From positions 250,702 through 314,701 of the forward strand of contig CP066690.1 in assembly GCA_016432465.1 (NCBI GenBank): DNA of 64,000 nucleotides. The letters are read 5' to 3'. Every line of letters begins with the position of its first letter. The first letter of the stretch is position 1. A program made the position numbers and the translations under genes. The notes under the pieces were generated by a model that saw nothing but the letters and a program-made list of their open reading frames with translations, was not told the origin of the DNA and made no database searches. Of the stretch, positions 7,401 to 51,537 are shown piece by piece. The stretch is from Candidatus Sungiibacteriota bacterium. GTDB lineage: Bacteria; Patescibacteriota; Minisyncoccia; Sungbacterales; HO2-52-23.

Positions 7401-7639
7401 TCCGAGCAGGACATTGGCACGAGCCTCCGCCTGCCCGTTAGGGCAGAACGCCGAAACAAAATTTTCTTTCTCTTTTAGAAGAAAAAAATCTGGCGCGCGC
7501 GAAAAATCAAAAATGTAAAGAAAATTTTGTTGGGGCGTAGCCCCGCCTTTGGCGGGACGCGGAGGCGTTGAGTAGCTAGAATTTTTTAGGAATTTTTGAC
7601 AAAGTAGGTTCGAGCGGACTCATAAAGATACATTCCCAT

Positions 7640-9525: not shown

Positions 9526-9616
9526 GGTGGGATGCCAGAGTCCGGTTGAATGGGCCGCACTCGAAATGCGGTATCCCGCTTTAGCGGGATCGGGGGTTCA
9601 AATCCCTCTCCCACCG
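9526..9616 (+). tRNA. tRNA-Ser (anticodon CGA), type II
   Basis: acceptor GGTGGGA/TCCCACC, anticodon stem CCGCA/TGCGG with loop CTCGAAA, long variable arm TATCCCGCTTTAGCGGGATC, T-arm GGGGG-TTCAAAT-CCCTC; terminator-like hairpin follows at 9622-9660. Confidence 0.75.
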
Positions 9617-13989: not shown

Positions 13990-14335
13990 TGGAATTTAAC
14001 CATCAAAGAAAAACTTGCTTGTCCGTCGTAGCTCGTGAGAGCGGAGGCGGAAAATTGTCATCCCCCTTCGCTCCTCCTCCGTCTACGACTTCGGCAGGAC
14101 ACAGTAAAACTTCGGACGGACAAGTCGGTGCGGCTCCCCGCCTGCGCCGAGGCTTCCACCGACGCTGAAGCTTTGACGGACAGGTCGGCGGGCAGACGCC
14201 GCCTTTCCGAATTTTCGCGGGCCTCCGCCTCGCCGAAGTGGCTTCGGCCACGCAGGCGGGGGGACTTCCTCGCCGCCGCAGGCGGCTCGCCTCATCCCCG
14301 ACGAGTCGGAGCGGGCGAAAGCGGTTAGGACTAAT
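13990..14335. repeat. GC-rich structured non-coding insert containing a 60-bp repeat (also at 15147-15207) and the shared 17-mer GCCGCAGGCGGCTCGC
   Basis: visibly far GC-richer than its surroundings; AAAGAAAAACTTGCTTGTCCG(T/C)CGTAGCTCGTGAGAGCGG(A/G)GGCGGAAAATTGTCAT is repeated at 15147; the six-frame ORFs here are low-complexity R/A/G/P strings. Confidence 0.5.
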
Positions 14336-22383: not shown

Positions 22384-22602
22384 TTACCGCAGAGATTACC
22401 GGTTTTTCAGGAGTCCGATAATGCTTTTAGTATAGCATATTAGGAGCTATAAGTCAAGCAAACAAAAAAATCAGCATTTCTGCTGTTTCTTGGCCTAAAT
22501 CTTATAAATTCTATGATTAAAAGTTTTTCTTTTCTTCTTTCAAAATCGCCAATTCGTTTTTCTTGTCCGCCAAAGGCGGATCTGCCTTTGGCATGAGGCG
22601 GC

Positions 22603-41748: not shown

Positions 41749-41835
41749 GGTGGGGTCGCATAGTGGTCTAGTGCGGCACGGTGCTAACGTGCTGACCCTT
41801 CACGGGGTCCGTGGGTTCGAATCCCACCCCCACCG
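41749..41835 (+). tRNA. tRNA-Ser (anticodon GCT), type II
   Basis: acceptor GGTGGGG/CCCCACC, anticodon stem GCACG/CGTGC with loop GTGCTAA, variable arm TGACCCTTCACGGGGTC, T-arm GTGGG-TTCGAAT-CCCAC. Confidence 0.8.
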
Positions 41836-43094: not shown

Positions 43095-43454
43095 ATGAAA
43101 CCAACTATTAATTATTCCTGGAAACAGTTTGACAGCGACGTGAAGAAAATCGCTAAATTATTGCGGGCAAGAAAAAAAGTATTTAATGGTGTGTGGGGGC
43201 CGATACGCGGGGGCTTACCTCTTGCTGTATGTCTTTCTCACGCTTTAGGCATACCTTTTCTCCAAAAACCCAACGGAAAGAAAACCCTGATTGTGGATGA
43301 TATTGCCGACACCGGAAAAACTCTTAAAAAATTTGCCGACAAAAATTATTTTATCGTAACGCTTTTTTACCGTCGGGGATCTGTGTTTAAACCAAATATC
43401 TGGCTCCGGGAGAAAAAAGATAAATGGGTAAAGTTCCCTTGGGAGAAAAAATAA
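43095..43454 (+). CDS. small type-I phosphoribosyltransferase-domain protein
   Basis: PRPP-binding motif KKTLIVDDIADTGKTL; start taken at MKPTINY, ATG at 43095. Confidence 0.6.
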   Translation: MKPTINYSWKQFDSDVKKIAKLLRARKKVFNGVWGPIRGGLPLAVCLSHALGIPFLQKPNGKKTLIVDDIADTGKTLKKFADKNYFIVTLFYRRGSVFKPNIWLREKKDKWVKFPWEKK

Positions 43455-43590
43455 GGTGGGTTCGCCTAATGGGTTGAAGCCAACTGCTTGGCTTCAACGG
43501 GCGATTTAGGCGAGCGTCCTCGCGAGCCGTTAAAAATCGCCCCGGGTTTCGCCGAGGAGGCGAAACGACACCAGTCTTCCCCGCACTACA
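43455..43590 (+). ncRNA. conserved structured element, copy C
   Basis: GGGCGATTT...AAATCGCCC hairpin (compensatory changes relative to GGGAAATTT/AAATTTCCC in copies A and B) and GTTTCGCC-GAGGAG-GGCGAAAC hairpin. Confidence 0.45.
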
Positions 43591-43596
43591 ATTTTG

Positions 43597-43671
43597 GAAG
43601 CGTGGCCGAGCGGTTTATGGCGCTGGTCTTGCCCGCCAGAGGCGGGTCCGCCTTTGGCGGAAAAACTACTT
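43597..43671 (+). pseudogene. tRNA-Ser-like 5' half fused to the 40-nt double-hairpin repeat (copy 1)
   Basis: GGAAGCGTGGCCGAGCGGTTTATGGCGCTGGTCTTGCCCGCCAGAGGCGGGTCCGCCTTTGGCGGAAAAACT has no T-arm or 3' acceptor. Confidence 0.5.
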
Positions 43672-43929
43672 ATGGCTATAACATACATTTTATTTAGTTC
43701 CAGTTGCGGTAAATTTTATGTTGGTTCTTCACGAAATGATAATATACGGGTTCGCCTTTCTGCCCACAATGCCGGACGAGTAAAATCTACTAAATCCTAT
43801 AGACCGTGGACTATTGTTACAACAGAAAAACTTCAGAGCTATTCTGATGCCAGAAAAAGAGAACTGTTTCTCAAGTCAGGTGTTGGGCGAAAATTGATAG
43901 CAGAGAAATTTGGATTTTTGAAAAGTTAA
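43672..43929 (+). CDS. GIY-YIG nuclease-domain protein (UPF0213/YhbQ-like), copy 1
   Basis: YILFSS..GKFYVGSSRN...RLSAHNAG....T....PW.IV..E......A..RE..LKS..GR pattern; real start at MAITYIL. Confidence 0.65.
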   Translation: MAITYILFSSSCGKFYVGSSRNDNIRVRLSAHNAGRVKSTKSYRPWTIVTTEKLQSYSDARKRELFLKSGVGRKLIAEKFGFLKS

Positions 43930-43950
43930 TATGTGTGGCGGGCTTGGTAG

Positions 43951-44023
43951 GGTGGCCGAGTGGTTTAAGGCGGCGGTCTTGCCCGCCAGAGGCGGGTCCG
44001 CCTTTGGCGGAAAAACTCAATAG
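43951..44023 (+). pseudogene. tRNA-Ser-like 5' half fused to the 40-nt double-hairpin repeat (copy 2)
   Basis: GGTAGGGTGGCCGAGTGGTTTAAGGCGGCGGTCTTGCCCGCCAGAGGCGGGTCCGCCTTTGGCGGAAAAACT. Confidence 0.5.
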
Positions 44024-44024
44024 T

Positions 44025-44315
44025 ATGCCCTGTATTTATATCTTATATAGCAGAAGTAAAAATAGGTTTTATGTCGGATCAACTAGAGACGATAGGCCTT
44101 TTGTGCGTTTAGACTCACACAACCATGGAAAGGTTCGCTCTACAAAAGCCGGACGGCCGTGGGCACTGACATACCAAGAGTACTACTCCAATTACCATCA
44201 AGCGAGGAAAAGAGAAATCTTCTTAAAATCCGGTGTTGGTAGGACTTGGATTAAAGAAAAATTTCCAAATCTAAAGAACGACGGCGCCGGAGCGGAGACG
44301 TGGGTGAGTGGCTGA
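44025..44315 (+). CDS. GIY-YIG nuclease-domain protein (UPF0213/YhbQ-like), copy 2
   Basis: MPCIYILYSRSKNRFYVGSTRDD...RLDSHNHGKVRSTKAGRPWALTYQEYY..YHQARKREIFLKSGVGR; its 3' end overlaps tRNA-Ser(TGA). Confidence 0.6.
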   Translation: MPCIYILYSRSKNRFYVGSTRDDRPFVRLDSHNHGKVRSTKAGRPWALTYQEYYSNYHQARKREIFLKSGVGRTWIKEKFPNLKNDGAGAETWVSG

Positions 44316-44380
44316 AACCGGCAGTCTTGAAAACTGCTATACCTGTAAGGGTATCGGAGGTTCGAATCCTCCCGTCTCCG
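44294..44380 (+). tRNA. tRNA-Ser (anticodon TGA), type II
   Basis: acceptor GGAGACG/CGTCTCC, anticodon stem GCAGT/ACTGC with loop CTTGAAA, variable arm ATACCTGTAAGGGTATC, T-arm GGAGG-TTCGAAT-CCTCC; flanked by complementary GCCGGAGC / GCTCCGGC. Confidence 0.8.
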
Positions 44381-44390
44381 CTCCGGCTCT

Positions 44391-44470
44391 GTCTTGCCCG
44401 CCAGAGGCGGGTCCGCCTTTGGCGGAAAAACTGGCGGGAGAAATCCCTTGCAGGTTCGACTCCTGCACCC
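44391..44470 (+). repeat. 40-nt double-hairpin repeat (copy 3) followed by a tRNA T-arm/acceptor 3' fragment
   Basis: TCTTGCCCGCCAGAGGCGGGTCCGCCTTTGGCGGAAAAACT then CTTGCAGGTTCGACTCCTGCACCCACCG. Confidence 0.5.
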
Positions 44471-44518
44471 ACCGTCGGTTAGGAAAAGGTCGATTTTTCA
44501 TAAATTTCATTTTATATT

Positions 44519-45158
44519 TATGCCCAAGAAAAACGTCGCACAAATTAAAAAAGAACTTCTACGGGGCCTCAAGGTTTCTCGACGCAGGACAAAAAAGCCA
44601 GAGATTTTGGCTCTCGTGGGGATTACCGGTGCCGGCAATAGCACCATTGCACGAGAATTTAGTCGGATGCTCGGATGGACAGTGATTGAAAAAAACAAGA
44701 TACGCGTAAAACTTCGCGAAGAGGGTCCAGGATTTACGGTGGCCAATACCAACGCTCTACATGAAGCGATGGTAAAAGAAGTTATCATGCGGCTCGGAAA
44801 CGTAATCCTTGATTCTGACATGGTTGAGAAACCAAAAAGAAAGCGGCTCGAGCGACTGGCGAGAAAATACGGAGCGCGGGTAGCGTATCTGCACTTAACC
44901 TGTAACCGTGATGTCATGCTTGAACGAATGATACGAGCAAAATATAATCCCAAAACAAACATTTTTAAGAGCGCCGCGATTGCCGTCAGGGAACATTGCC
45001 GACGCTACCCATGGCACTATCGCTGGTCTCCTGCCAACGGCGGACAATATGTTTTGCGAAAACTGCCCATAAAATTCTTTGCCGAGATAGATACCACCGA
45101 TCCTGCCAAGTGGCGCAAGAAATTACGAAACATTGTAAAGCGCCTCAAAAAGTTATAA
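44519..45158 (+). CDS. P-loop NTPase / small-molecule kinase-like protein (AAA_33/zeta-toxin-like fold)
   Basis: Walker A GITGAGNST at the N-terminus of a roughly 213-aa protein; start taken at MPKKNVAQ. Confidence 0.55.
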
Positions 45159-49431: not shown

Positions 49432-51537
49432 ATGGCTGACATCCGTATCCACACCCCCATAGAGCAAGTCCCGGCCATCAGGAAAAGGATCATTCCGTCC
49501 CTGAAGCGTCTGGGTATAAAAACCATACGCGATCTTTTGTTTCATTTTCCTTCGCGCTACGAAGATTTTTCAAATTTAAAAACAGTCCAAACCCTTGAGG
49601 CCGGCGAAACGGTCACTATCCAAGGATACGTGAAAAGAGTAACCAATCGCCGGACTCCCCGAAAAAGAATGTTTTTAACCGAAGCCGTAATAAATGACGG
49701 AACGGGAAATATAAAAGCCCTGTGGTTCAACCAGCCCTTTCTCGTAAGAAACATAAAATCCGGAAACATAGTGAGTTTGTCGGGCAAAGTAGCGTGGGGG
49801 CAGGGCGGATTGTATCTTCAGAATCCTGCCTACGAGAGAATTCATAATTCAGAGTTTAAAACAACTAGTTCACAAGGAACACATACCGGAGGACTGGTGG
49901 CTATGTATCCGGAAACGGAAGGTATTTCTTCCCGCTGGTTAAGATATCTTATAAAGTCGTTCCTGAGCTTTAGGAAGGAACTTGCTGATCCCCTTCCTTC
50001 GGAGACTAGAAAAAGACACATGCTGTCCGATATTTATACGGCCTTGCAAAACATTCATTTCCCCCAAAACACACAAGAGGCGGAGGGGGCACGCCGCAGG
50101 TTTAGTTTTGAACAGATGCTTTTTATACAGCTTCGGGCCCTGAAAGAACGTATGCGCCTCAAAAAATTCAGCGCACCAGCTATTTCCTTGAATCTCCCGC
50201 TCCTGAAAAAATTTGTAAACTCTCTTCCCTATGAGCTAACCGACGCCCAACGCCGTTCCGTCTGGGAAATTGTGCAGGATATTTCCAAACCCCGCCCTAT
50301 GAACCGCCTGCTGGAAGGAGACGTAGGGTCCGGCAAAACAGTAGTTGCGGCTGCGGCTTCACTCCTTGCTATTCAGGAGGGGTACGAAGTCGCCTTTATG
50401 GCGCCGACAGAGATTCTTGCCAAGCAGCACTACTCAACGCTTGAAAAAATATTACACCCTTTTGGGGTTCGGGTTGGACTTCTTACCGGATCCGAAAAAA
50501 ACAAACGTAGTAACACCCTGCTCTGTGTAGGAACTCACGCCTTAATACAAAAAAACGCCCACTTTAAAAATCTGGGGTTGGTGATTGTTGATGAACAGCA
50601 TCGTTTTGGCGTGGAGCAACGCGCCCAGCTTGCCAAAAACAGTTCCGGTTCCCTTCCCCATTTCTTGTCTATGAGCGCCACACCCATCCCCCGGACATTG
50701 GCTCTCACCGTATATGGAGATCTTGACCTTTCTATACTGGACGAGCTGCCTAAAAACCGCAGGGAAATTATTACTAAAATTATCGGGCCCGGGAAACGGG
50801 AAGAAACATATCAATTCATCCGGGAAGGGGTGAAGCGGGGGGGACAGGCGTTTGTGATTTGCCCGAGAATAGAAGTCGGGGGTCAGGGATTGAAAATCGG
50901 AAAAATATCCCAACAGAAACTGCTTCTGGCCGACACCAAGACCGTGAAAGAGGAATATAAAAAACTATCCGAGAAAATTTTCCCGGATTTAAATGTGGGC
51001 ATACTCCACGGAAAGATGCCCGCCAAAGGCGGGTCCGCCTCCGGCGGAAAATCAAAAGAGCAAACTATGAAAGAATTCAAAGAAGGTAAGATAGATATTC
51101 TCGTCTCCACGTCGGTGGTGGAAGTAGGGGTGGACATACCCAACGCCACCATCATGGTGATTGAGGGAGCGGAAAAGTTTGGGCTGGCCCAACTTCATCA
51201 ATTTCGCGGTCGTGTGGGCAGAGGCGAACATCAATCTTACTGCTTCCTTTTTCCCACCGAGAATGGACTTGTAACCAAGCGGCTTAGGGCAGTGGTGGAG
51301 GCCAAGAACGGGTTTGAACTGGCAGAAAAAGATCTGGAAATCCGGGGGCCGGGAGACTTATTTGGCATACGCCAATGGGGAGTTCCGGACGTTGTATTGG
51401 CTGACATAAACAATGCCCGCCTGGTACGGGAAGTACGCGTTGCGGCCTTGGAGCTTATTAAAAAAGACCCTTCTTTGACCGGCTACCCCTTACTTTTGGA
51501 AGAACTCAAGCGCAGCCACACCCTTCATCTTGAATAA
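49432..51537 (+). CDS. recG: ATP-dependent DNA helicase RecG (carries an in-frame 12-aa repeat-derived insertion)
   Basis: wedge domain N-terminus; helicase motif I GDVGSGKT, motif II DEQHRFG; 701 aa; residues PAKGGSASGGKS are encoded by the double-hairpin repeat at 51017-51056. Confidence 0.9.
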   Translation: MADIRIHTPIEQVPAIRKRIIPSLKRLGIKTIRDLLFHFPSRYEDFSNLKTVQTLEAGETVTIQGYVKRVTNRRTPRKRMFLTEAVINDGTGNIKALWFNQPFLVRNIKSGNIVSLSGKVAWGQGGLYLQNPAYERIHNSEFKTTSSQGTHTGGLVAMYPETEGISSRWLRYLIKSFLSFRKELADPLPSETRKRHMLSDIYTALQNIHFPQNTQEAEGARRRFSFEQMLFIQLRALKERMRLKKFSAPAISLNLPLLKKFVNSLPYELTDAQRRSVWEIVQDISKPRPMNRLLEGDVGSGKTVVAAAASLLAIQEGYEVAFMAPTEILAKQHYSTLEKILHPFGVRVGLLTGSEKNKRSNTLLCVGTHALIQKNAHFKNLGLVIVDEQHRFGVEQRAQLAKNSSGSLPHFLSMSATPIPRTLALTVYGDLDLSILDELPKNRREIITKIIGPGKREETYQFIREGVKRGGQAFVICPRIEVGGQGLKIGKISQQKLLLADTKTVKEEYKKLSEKIFPDLNVGILHGKMPAKGGSASGGKSKEQTMKEFKEGKIDILVSTSVVEVGVDIPNATIMVIEGAEKFGLAQLHQFRGRVGRGEHQSYCFLFPTENGLVTKRLRAVVEAKNGFELAEKDLEIRGPGDLFGIRQWGVPDVVLADINNARLVREVRVAALELIKKDPSLTGYPLLLEELKRSHTLHLE
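51017..51056 (+). repeat. 40-nt double-hairpin repeat, copy 4, inserted in frame inside recG
   Basis: GATGCCCGCCAAAGGCGGGTCCGCCTCCGGCGGAAAATC versus the consensus CTTGCCCGCCAGAGGCGGGTCCGCCTTTGGCGGAAAAACT. Confidence 0.65.

Follow-up and report, generated by a model that had tools for sequence, protein, structure and literature searches.

GIY-YIG mini-genes nested in a split tRNA-Ser gene: an apparently undescribed selfish DNA family

The locus described here raises the question of how two small genes for GIY-YIG proteins came to lie among pieces of a tRNA-Ser gene. It is a nest at positions 43455–44474 of the window, that is, of the whole 64-kb stretch of Candidatus Sungiibacteriota DNA that was analysed, and all coordinates below are positions in this window unless they carry the name of another locus. 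Two co-oriented modules, 350 nucleotides (nt) apart start to start, follow one plan: tRNA-Ser positions 1–36, a 30-nt GC-rich double hairpin, called here the double hairpin element (DHE), six further tRNA bases, and an intact GIY-YIG gene of 85 amino acids (aa). In the reading that we favour and consider reasonably probable, the two modules are two generations of a selfish nuclease cassette of the Slx1/UPF0213 type, which lives inside tRNA genes and came in by repeated invasion. Such cassettes look like an undescribed family of selfish DNA.

The initial annotation covered 43597–44315 and described two modules of about 350 bp with the same layout, namely a tRNA 5′ half, a 40-nt double-hairpin repeat and a GIY-YIG protein of 85–95 aa, with an intact tRNA-Ser(TGA) downstream. 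The modules are present with small corrections of the coordinates, both open reading frames (ORFs) match Pfam GIY-YIG, and ARAGORN and Rfam both place the intact tRNA at 44294–44381. The repeat is real as well, the DHE itself being 30 nt long within an identical core of 42 nt. The annotated span turned out to be the middle of the nest, which extends beyond it and ends with a third DHE and a tRNA 3′ remnant. These two features had gone unnoticed, as had the fragment at 43455–43473, an inverted repeat around the intact tRNA, and a further DHE in a RecG-like ORF.

For comparison, we used loci around homologues of the nuclease (L001–L003, L126–L144) and around copies of the DHE in GTDB genomes. 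One of the compared stretches, L146, comes from a close relative, in which the neighbouring kinase is 81% identical. The features of the nest are the following:

43455–43473, plus strand: 5′ fragment of the outermost tRNA-Ser relic (acceptor 5′ strand and start of the D-arm), GGTGGGTTCGCCTAATGGG, divided as GGTGGGT TC GCC TAATGGG; 18 of 19 bases as in L146:3677-3695
43474–43548, plus strand: hairpin-rich spacer within the D-loop of the outer relic; several stable hairpins in the fold
43549–43595, plus strand: conserved leader of the split tRNA-Ser(TGA) gene; leader and 5′ half together 90.6% identical over 85 nt to L146:3892-3976
43596–43631, plus strand: tRNA-Ser 5′ half of module 1, positions 1–36; bases 8–36 as in the 5′ half of the intact L146 tRNA-Ser(TGA)
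43632–43661, plus strand: DHE copy 1, CCCGCCAGAGGCGGGTCCGCCTTTGGCGGA, between tRNA positions 35 and 36; AAAACT (tRNA 36–41) follows at 43662–43667
43672–43929, plus strand: GIY-YIG mini-gene 1, ATG at 43672, 85 aa; Pfam PF01541, E 4.7e-12
43946–43981, plus strand: tRNA-Ser 5′ half of module 2 (orphan); about 97% identical to the tRNA-Ser(TGA) 5′ half of L085
43982–44011, plus strand: DHE copy 2; AAAACT follows at 44012–44017
44025–44315, plus strand: GIY-YIG mini-gene 2, ATG at 44025; a 96-aa ORF made up of the 85-aa domain and 11 codons running into the tRNA; Pfam E 2.2e-11
44294–44381, plus strand: intact tRNA-Ser(TGA), found by ARAGORN; Rfam tRNA, 59.7 bits
44280–44393, plus strand: unit enclosed by the inverted repeat around the intact tRNA, with arms 44280–44293 and 44380–44393
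44391–44426, plus strand: GTCTTG and DHE copy 3 (44397–44426), the right end of the insertion; with 44427–44432 it forms the third 42-nt copy
44427–44474, plus strand: tRNA-Ser 3′ remnant, positions 36–73, with AAAACTGG, variable arm, T-arm, acceptor 3′ strand ACCCACC, and G73

The interrupted tRNA-Ser gene

The three copies of the 42-nt core GTCTTG + DHE + AAAACT are 100% identical to each other, and the 74 nt of tRNA half plus DHE are 92% identical between modules 1 and 2, while none of 100 shuffles of the window contained a DHE match. The flanks of the DHE are the two sides of the anticodon loop of tRNA-Ser(UGA) (CTTG^AAAAC), and the element thus lies between positions 35 and 36. Copy 3, located behind the intact tRNA, has only GTCTTG in front of it and passes directly into the tRNA 3′ part.

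In L146, the tRNA-Ser(TGA) gene is uninterrupted, with neither a DHE nor a GIY-YIG gene at that place. Its 45-nt leader and 5′ half correspond, at the identity given above, to 43548–43631 of the window, and in silico deletion of 43632–44426 yields a full-length sequence that aligns along the whole L146 gene. Length and alignment are restored by this deletion, acceptor pairing is not. The comparison and the deletion alignment together identify the module-1 half and the 3′ piece as the two sides of one resident gene. By this sequence comparison, then, 43632–44426 is a 795-nt insertion between anticodon-loop positions 35 and 36, flanked by identical DHEs and with the 42-nt direct repeat at its ends. 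The module-1 half is what remains, on the left, of the resident tRNA-Ser(TGA) gene, and not cargo of the cassette. A search for a syntenic empty site by way of the downstream kinase was abandoned, as three of the four relatives (L147–L149) have no tRNA nearby and only L146 is informative.

Around the split gene there is an older layer, which is also present in L146. There, a 19-nt 5′ fragment that differs by one base lies upstream, and downstream of the intact tRNA there is a separate 3′ relic whose last bases are ACCCTCC. The 3′ piece of the window is 80% identical over 51 nt to this outer relic. Its variable arm and T-stem are those of the inner L146 gene and its acceptor strand is that of the outer relic, so that it looks, as far as can be judged from the alignment, like an in-register chimera (a recombinant) of two relic 3′ parts. 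Four apparent compensatory changes in the 3′ relic, which would have favoured a functional outer tRNA, were discarded on these grounds: the variable arm and T-stem match the inner L146 tRNA, and a single pair remains, T3-A70 in the window versus A3-T70 in the outer acceptor of L146.

The outermost acceptor strands are perfectly complementary across insertions of 0.4–1 kb in all six nests compared (window, L146, L001, L002, L128 and L131). In the window, GGTGGGT at 43455–43461 is the exact complement of ACCCACC at 44467–44473, and this 7-mer occurs just twice in the window. It is the only pair of fragments that does pair, and its 5′ member lacks most of the D and anticodon arms; in L146, the anticodon stem of the outer relic is not kept (2 of 5 pairs). 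The outer acceptor helix may be either a relic or a processing helix under selection. A tmRNA or another tRNA-like outer scaffold was considered and rejected, since ARAGORN finds none and the acceptor stem has no G3-U70 pair. For the acceptor strands of the modules themselves, GGAAGCG and GGTAGGG, no 7-mer partner (CGCTTCC or CCCTACC) is found nearby, and the 5′ halves stay below the Rfam tRNA threshold of 29 bits, the module-1 half with 20.9. The initial suggestion that the cassette mimics tRNA-Ser is not borne out by these 5′ halves.

The outermost relic begins straight after the stop codon of the upstream gene, and is similar to the 5′ halves of L131 and L142. The fold z-score of 43455–43672 is −4.55. 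The spacer at 43474–43548 can be aligned in part with L001, where one hairpin has compensatory changes, and is poorly conserved in comparison with L146. Short motifs, GCGAGC and GAAGCGAG, are shared by the spacers of unrelated lineages (window 43500–43530, L001, L002, L109 and L146) and may belong to another small repeat family. Inside the leader, a promoter-like site, ACGACA-16-TACAAT, is found at 43565–43592, and a conserved motif resembling TGCTAGAT stands upstream of the tRNA halves in L126, L128, L129 and L142.

The 14-nt inverted repeat extends the acceptor stem of the intact tRNA to a 21-bp helix (21 nt, 90% complementary). The intact inner tRNA always lies inside such a repeat of 9–17 nt (window, L001:2368-2475, L146:3925-4052, L126, L128, L129 and L131). 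The sequences of these repeats are unrelated between lineages, and in the L126 group the 5′ arm consists of the last codons of the nuclease gene; the repeat may be a processing stem.

Over 43300–44700, Rfam detects tRNA and no other known RNA family, at both gathering and permissive (E up to 10) thresholds. A group I intron was rejected, as no intron family is found in Rfam and only about 90 nt per module are non-coding. Within 43455–44474, the only ORFs with domain matches are the two GIY-YIG genes, and no recombinase is among them. The window holds 16 tRNA genes, three of them for tRNA-Ser (CGA at 9526, GCT at 41749 and TGA at 44294), a density that is typical of small genomes of the candidate phyla radiation (CPR). 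In L146, a 351-aa ORF with a faint LAGLIDADG_3 match (L146:1249-2304) lies just upstream of tRNA-Ser(GCT), and may be another endonuclease-type gene beside a tRNA.

The mini-proteins and the double hairpin element

The two proteins match Pfam GIY-YIG with 46.5 and 44.3 bits (cut-off 22.6), and are 55% identical to each other. Protein 1 has an identical counterpart encoded on a 923-kb contig of a Candidatus Sungiibacteriota metagenome-assembled genome. Protein 2 is nearer to its counterparts in L086 (67%), L002 (61%) and L085 (60%) than to protein 1, and each of the two genes is 61–67% identical to relatives in other genomes. A recent tandem duplication, which the initial annotation had named as the trivial case at more than 99% identity, can therefore be dismissed. 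The family is large, with 13,602 clusters (50% identity) at E up to 1e-3 and 3,837 at E up to 1e-10. In an alignment of 30 members, Y16, G18, N33 and E64 are invariant, and Y5, R28 and H32 are at least 90% conserved. These positions we take to be catalytic from the known I-TevI and UvrC structures. The conserved positions correspond to the expected active-site set of GIY-YIG enzymes, and the nuclease looks active by this pattern.

The AlphaFold model has a predicted local distance difference test (pLDDT) score of 96.6. In a fold search with it, the UPF0213 protein BH0048 (1zg2) ranks first, and the Slx1 entries 7cq3, 6seh and 4xm5 follow with probability 1.00 and template modelling (TM) scores of 0.61–0.68 (7cq3: TM 0.68, root-mean-square deviation 1.8 Å), at E-values of only 5e-3 to 3e-2. 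The catalytic domains of I-TevI and UvrC rank below the Slx1/UPF0213 entries, and a sequence search against solved structures gave no match. The mini-protein is a member of the GIY-YIG superfamily and, on the predicted model, belongs structurally to the Slx1/UPF0213 clade. It is a single domain of 85 aa, lacking the C-terminal RING/zinc-finger of Slx1. The model for group I intron endonucleases, TIGR01453, gives 17.9 bits at a cut-off of 56. Homologues often have an N-terminal extension that translates a tRNA half and DHE, or a C-terminus that runs into a tRNA. An origin from a phage, a plasmid or a defence system was considered and rejected: PHROGs, PADLOC and the phage, plasmid and E. coli collections contain no match to the protein, and IMG/VR contains one DHE.

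The DHE was searched for in species-representative genomes (about 1.2e12 positions) with a pattern in which all 24 stem bases are fixed and the loops are free, for which a rough estimate of the chance expectation is far below one match. It was found in at least 120 stretches. The matches listed fall into some ten phylum-level groups, as named in the records, and include many CPR lineages, Omnitrophota, Planctomycetota, Kiritimatiellota, Chloroflexota, Acidobacteria and others. Among these listed loci, a GIY-YIG gene directly adjoins the DHE in about 14 of some 120, and each of these lies in a tRNA context. The majority of copies are clean insertions of 30 nt that leave the flanks unduplicated, with a consensus of T at −2 and AA at +1 and +2. 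The stems are identical and the loops variable; loop positions x1 and y3 covary (54% Watson-Crick versus 34% in shuffles), which fits the alternative long hairpin of 12 bp seen in folds. No transposase was seen adjoining the copies.

Tolerance of the element in coding sequence fits its dimensions, 30 nt being a multiple of three and the stems bringing no stop codon in any frame. A fourth DHE of the window, at 51019–51048, lies in the RecG-like ORF at 49432–51537, with three mismatches, all in loops. It is read in frame (HGKM[PAKGGSASGG]KSKEQ), and RecG of T. maritima has an 8-residue gap precisely there. The insert is present in just 3–6 of 111 RecG relatives, a sporadic presence at one hot spot; L021, L031 and L054 also have this site occupied. 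After removal of the 30 nt, both RecG and the tRNA loops read straight through, with no target duplication. The DHE-bearing tRNA pieces are always partial copies, and in silico removal of the DHE from about 126 instances among the matches listed gave a complete restored tRNA in none, by which the DHE is rejected as a tRNA intron.

Elsewhere in the window, a degenerate double hairpin, TCCGCCAAAGGCGGATCTGCCTTTGGCA, occurs in a minus-strand ORF at 22563–22596, single 15-nt hairpins of the DHE type (e.g. CCCGCCTTTGGCGGG) are found at 7542–7556 and 14273–14285, and CCGCCNNNGGCGG occurs 19 times at up to one mismatch, versus 1.8 expected.

Related nests in other genomes

The initial annotation had proposed to look for GIY-YIG genes joined to tRNA halves elsewhere, and the layout indeed recurs in many phyla. 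The loci examined contain 42 non-redundant GIY-YIG genes. An intact tRNA lies within 200 nt of 31 of them, on the same strand in all 31 cases, and at least 20 have a partial copy of the same tRNA on their other side. The recurring plan is thus a small GIY-YIG gene that adjoins an intact tRNA, with a partial copy opposite whose loop is broken by a DHE or a related hairpin. It comes in two variants, with a 5′ part of the tRNA upstream of the gene or a 3′ part downstream. Past the junction hairpin, only 4–11 nt of tRNA homology remain. The tRNAs that house nuclease genes in this way are those for Ser, Leu, Val, Pro, Glu, Gln, Met and selenocysteine (SeC), and the junctions are in the D, anticodon or T loop.

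The partial copies are mostly 88–100% identical to the neighbouring intact tRNA. The module-2 half of the window, on the other hand, is about 97% identical to the tRNA-Ser of L085, from a metagenome-assembled genome of the Deltaproteobacteria, versus 75% to the window's own intact tRNA. Together with the closer foreign relatives of each gene, this foreign-like half points to separate acquisitions rather than to local duplication. In L131, the nuclease copy is a pseudogene with an in-frame stop, and at L045:4390-4590 there are tandem modules of a tRNA-Leu(TAA) 5′ half plus DHE that have no nuclease gene; both fit the decay of selfish DNA. L097 contains similar modules of a tRNA-Glu half plus DHE, again with no nuclease gene and with the DHE in the opposite orientation. 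The units of L045 and L097 look non-autonomous or decayed.

Related GIY-YIG subfamilies show the same nesting in tRNAs, with other hairpins at the junction. L126, L128 and L129 are close relatives; compared with L129, L126 and L128 have a double hairpin with swapped closing pairs (TCCGCC...GGCGGA CCCGCC...GGTGGG), inserted two bases further 5′ (GGTTT^CGAAAC versus GGTTTCG^AAAAC), which suggests independent insertions at almost one spot. In L002, a second 30-nt double hairpin with another first stem (TCAGCCAAAGGCTGATCCGCCTTGGGCGGA) lies at 2935–2964, in the T-loop of a 3′ tRNA relic. Variants of the element thus exist, and one relic has been struck several times. The published literature that was searched contains no account that links GIY-YIG genes with bacterial tRNA halves, and none with the DHE core sequence.

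A candidate mechanism, its precedents and its rivals

In the favoured reading, a resident tRNA-Ser(UGA) gene would have been split at 35/36 by the 795-nt insertion, which begins and ends with a DHE and carries gene 1, a complete second module (orphan half, DHE and gene 2) and an intact tRNA-Ser(UGA) that presumably takes over decoding as a replacement. The split gene would itself lie within the remains of an older tRNA-Ser gene, in a "Russian doll" of invasions. The nuclease genes are probably transcribed from the old tRNA promoter along with the downstream tRNA, because they are co-oriented with the tRNA and stand directly behind the promoter and 5′ half; tRNA half and DHE would then be their leader. 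The nuclease would nick or cut at the hairpin element or at the tRNA loop, and the cassette would spread by recombinational repair or by Campbell-type recombination through tRNA/DHE homology, which would explain the 42-nt direct repeat at both ends. On paper, both layouts can be obtained by a Campbell-type or repair-based exchange that uses either the 42-nt segment or the tRNA half. With one intact tRNA copy kept or delivered, the host could tolerate the invasion and would hardly be able to undo it. We read the tRNA halves as relics or homology arms and not as working split tRNAs.

By analogy, the locus appears to work most like a free-standing homing-endonuclease gene combined with the palindromic GC-cluster elements of fungal mitochondria. 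As with the free-standing GIY-YIG homing genes (phage T4 seg, the I-TevI family), a small selfish nuclease gene sits in or next to a conserved gene, the flanking homology could support spread by repair, and the fold search also matched the catalytic domain of I-TevI. Unlike the I-TevI type, the protein of the window is only 85 aa long, has no linker or DNA-binding domain, is nearer to Slx1/UPF0213 in fold, and is accompanied by no group I intron in Rfam, by a TIGR01453 score below cut-off and by no PHROG or phage match. Slx1-type nucleases are structure-specific, and the Slx1/UPF0213 (URI-domain) proteins, which provide the best structural matches, would be natural partners for a hairpin or cruciform element. 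The RING/zinc-finger is missing here, however, as is an Slx4 partner, and in the literature searched no link of the UPF0213/Slx1 family to tRNA genes or hairpin elements is described.

In Allomyces mitochondria, a mobile endonuclease ORF that introduced a substitute segment of atp6 has DHEs on its flanks. The bacterial DHE resembles the mitochondrial elements in its conserved stems, variable loops, sporadic presence and occurrence in genes, a likeness of functional class and not of homology. The yeast GC42 clusters and the Allomyces DHEs are described, in PMC4478555 and PMC3787672 (both citing Paquin et al. 2000), as short GC-rich palindromes with conserved stems and variable loops, which are sporadic at homologous sites, occur within genes, merge as hairpin units and are recombination hot spots. 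The bacterial element differs in being chromosomal and unrelated in sequence, in stem bases (those fixed in the pattern) that are unchanged across the phylum-level groups listed, and in its precise position at TTG^AAA-like sites, with no target duplication and with a link to tRNA gene loops.

The locus also resembles integrative elements that target tRNA genes and restore the gene that they split. These likewise insert in a tRNA gene and duplicate a tRNA segment so that one functional copy is kept, whereas the cassette has no integrase or recombinase gene, measures only 0.35–0.8 kb, sits in loops, and often duplicates the 5′ part instead of the 3′ end. Archaeal split and intron-containing tRNA genes (Nanoarchaeum, Caldivirga) also have separate halves, with GC-rich sequence where the anticodon loop is broken. 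The halves of the window differ from them in having no matching acceptors, an intact gene with the same anticodon next to them, and a break at 35/36 rather than 37/38; in contrast to the archaeal introns, excision of the hairpin never restores a tRNA. Rickettsia palindromic elements, roughly 100–150 nt long, are tolerated in frame in coding genes, as is the PAKGGSASGG insert in RecG, while the DHE is shorter, occurs in many phyla and is tied to a nuclease gene and to tRNA loops. From repeats of the types known as miniature inverted-repeat transposable elements (MITE) and repetitive extragenic palindromes (REP), the DHE is set apart by the lack of a target-site duplication, and no HUH (RAYT) or DDE transposase was seen next to its copies.

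The proposal of a mobile cassette that targets tRNA-Ser, made in the initial annotation, has gained from the empty site in L146, from the recurrence over phyla and tRNAs, and from the foreign relatives of the two genes, with the amendments that the unit is larger and does not include the module-1 half. Several points weigh against the favoured reading. We infer both the mobility of the cassette and the role of the nuclease, and no transposition, homing or cleavage was observed. A nuclease that cuts the loops of intact tRNA-Ser would also have the adjacent intact tRNA as a target. The window and L146 are not syntenic around the nest, which follows the kinase in L146 but lies upstream of it in the window, so that the comparison of empty and occupied sites depends on some 130 nt that are locally homologous. 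The complementarity of the outer acceptor strands, with the one compensatory pair between window and L146, might point to selection on the outer helix, which would then not be purely a relic. The protein consists of the catalytic domain only, and does not have the DNA-binding domain that gives the known GIY-YIG homing endonucleases their specificity. One viral contig, that with the DHE in IMG/VR, is the sole match in the phage, plasmid and viral collections, which thus point to no vector. Finally, simple loci such as L085 have no second DHE, and one mechanism may not suit all layouts.

The alternatives differ in what they take to be mobile. The DHE could be the primary mobile or recombinogenic element, with the tRNA duplications arising by recombination at DHEs and the GIY-YIG genes being passengers, or host nucleases that resolve or remove DHE hairpins. 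About 100 of the 120 DHE loci listed indeed have no GIY-YIG gene nearby, the clean insertions lie in ORFs or hairpin loops, few of the 111 relatives have the RecG site filled, and the loop sequences are shared between the DHE copies of one locus, as duplication by recombination would predict; the structure-specificity of Slx1-type enzymes and the fold match to Slx1 would suit a resolving nuclease. However, the GIY-YIG genes occur beside DHEs only in tRNA contexts, always co-oriented and directly adjacent, and other GIY-YIG subfamilies nest in tRNAs with other hairpins, so that the gene, and not only the DHE, tracks the layout. We consider this account unlikely. Still less likely is that nothing is mobile here, and that local tandem duplication and unequal crossing-over in a tRNA-Ser cluster, with the GIY-YIG genes as ordinary tRNA-linked host genes, built the nest. 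The 350-nt period with its 42-nt identical repeats is the type of substrate that unequal crossing-over would use, and the 3′ piece seems to have arisen by in-register recombination between two tRNA 3′ parts. The modest identity of the two genes, each nearer to genes of other genomes, speaks against it, and so do the presence of the layout at eight tRNA species in many phyla, the uninterrupted gene in the close relative and the resemblance of the module-2 half to a foreign tRNA.

The remaining accounts assign a function to the tRNA pieces. If the DHE were an intron-like insert and the GIY-YIG protein a processing enzyme, the pieces might be joined at the RNA level as split tRNAs, as in Nanoarchaeum. 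The exact position of the DHE in tRNA loops and the perfect complementarity of the outermost 5′ and 3′ acceptor strands in six nests agree with this idea. It is contradicted by the failure of DHE removal to restore a complete tRNA, by the unpaired acceptor strands of modules 1 and 2, by the decayed outer anticodon stem of L146 and by the intact tRNA-Ser(TGA) that is always next door; moreover, a 30-nt insert with stop-free stems in ORFs is what would be expected if the DHE were tolerated and not spliced. A working split tRNA is unlikely, and the RNA-level account as a whole we regard as very improbable. We would give hardly any weight to the view that tRNA half and DHE have been preserved as a regulatory leader, acting as a tRNA-like decoy or as a processing signal, through which a beneficial nuclease gene is controlled. 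The conservation of half and DHE (92–100%, versus about 55–60% for the ORFs) and their location 4–13 nt before the start codon are in its favour, but in many loci (L018, L068, L116, L137, L143) the DHE-bearing partial tRNA is downstream of the gene, and the half varies with whichever tRNA adjoins.

A bolder version of the selfish-cassette reading can be put forward tentatively, as a possibility that we hold to be well short of probable. In it, the DHE and the mini GIY-YIG gene would together constitute a previously unrecognised class of bacterial mobile element. The catalytic-domain-only, Slx1-like nuclease would recognise the DHE and drive its precise, duplication-free insertion at TTG^AAA-like sites (tRNA loops, hairpin loops and ORFs), and would also drive its own gene to home into tRNA genes. 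The element would persist by splitting the tRNA gene of the host and supplying the sole working copy, and CPR, Omnitrophota, Planctomycetota and other uncultured phyla would have it in common.

If the cassette reading is right, the tRNA genes of many uncultured bacterial phyla would host a compact selfish system of an ~85-aa nuclease and a 30-nt hairpin, overlooked because gene callers write "GIY-YIG family protein" and fragments are passed over by tRNA finders. Orphan tRNA halves and nested tRNA genes in metagenome-assembled genomes would find an explanation in it, as would odd N-terminal extensions of predicted proteins and short in-frame inserts rich in Gly, Ser and Ala in conserved proteins such as RecG. 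A minimal hairpin-reading nuclease of this kind could serve as a tool. The system would also be a bacterial counterpart to the mitochondrial GC clusters, for which no mechanism of spread has yet been established, and would come with a candidate enzyme.

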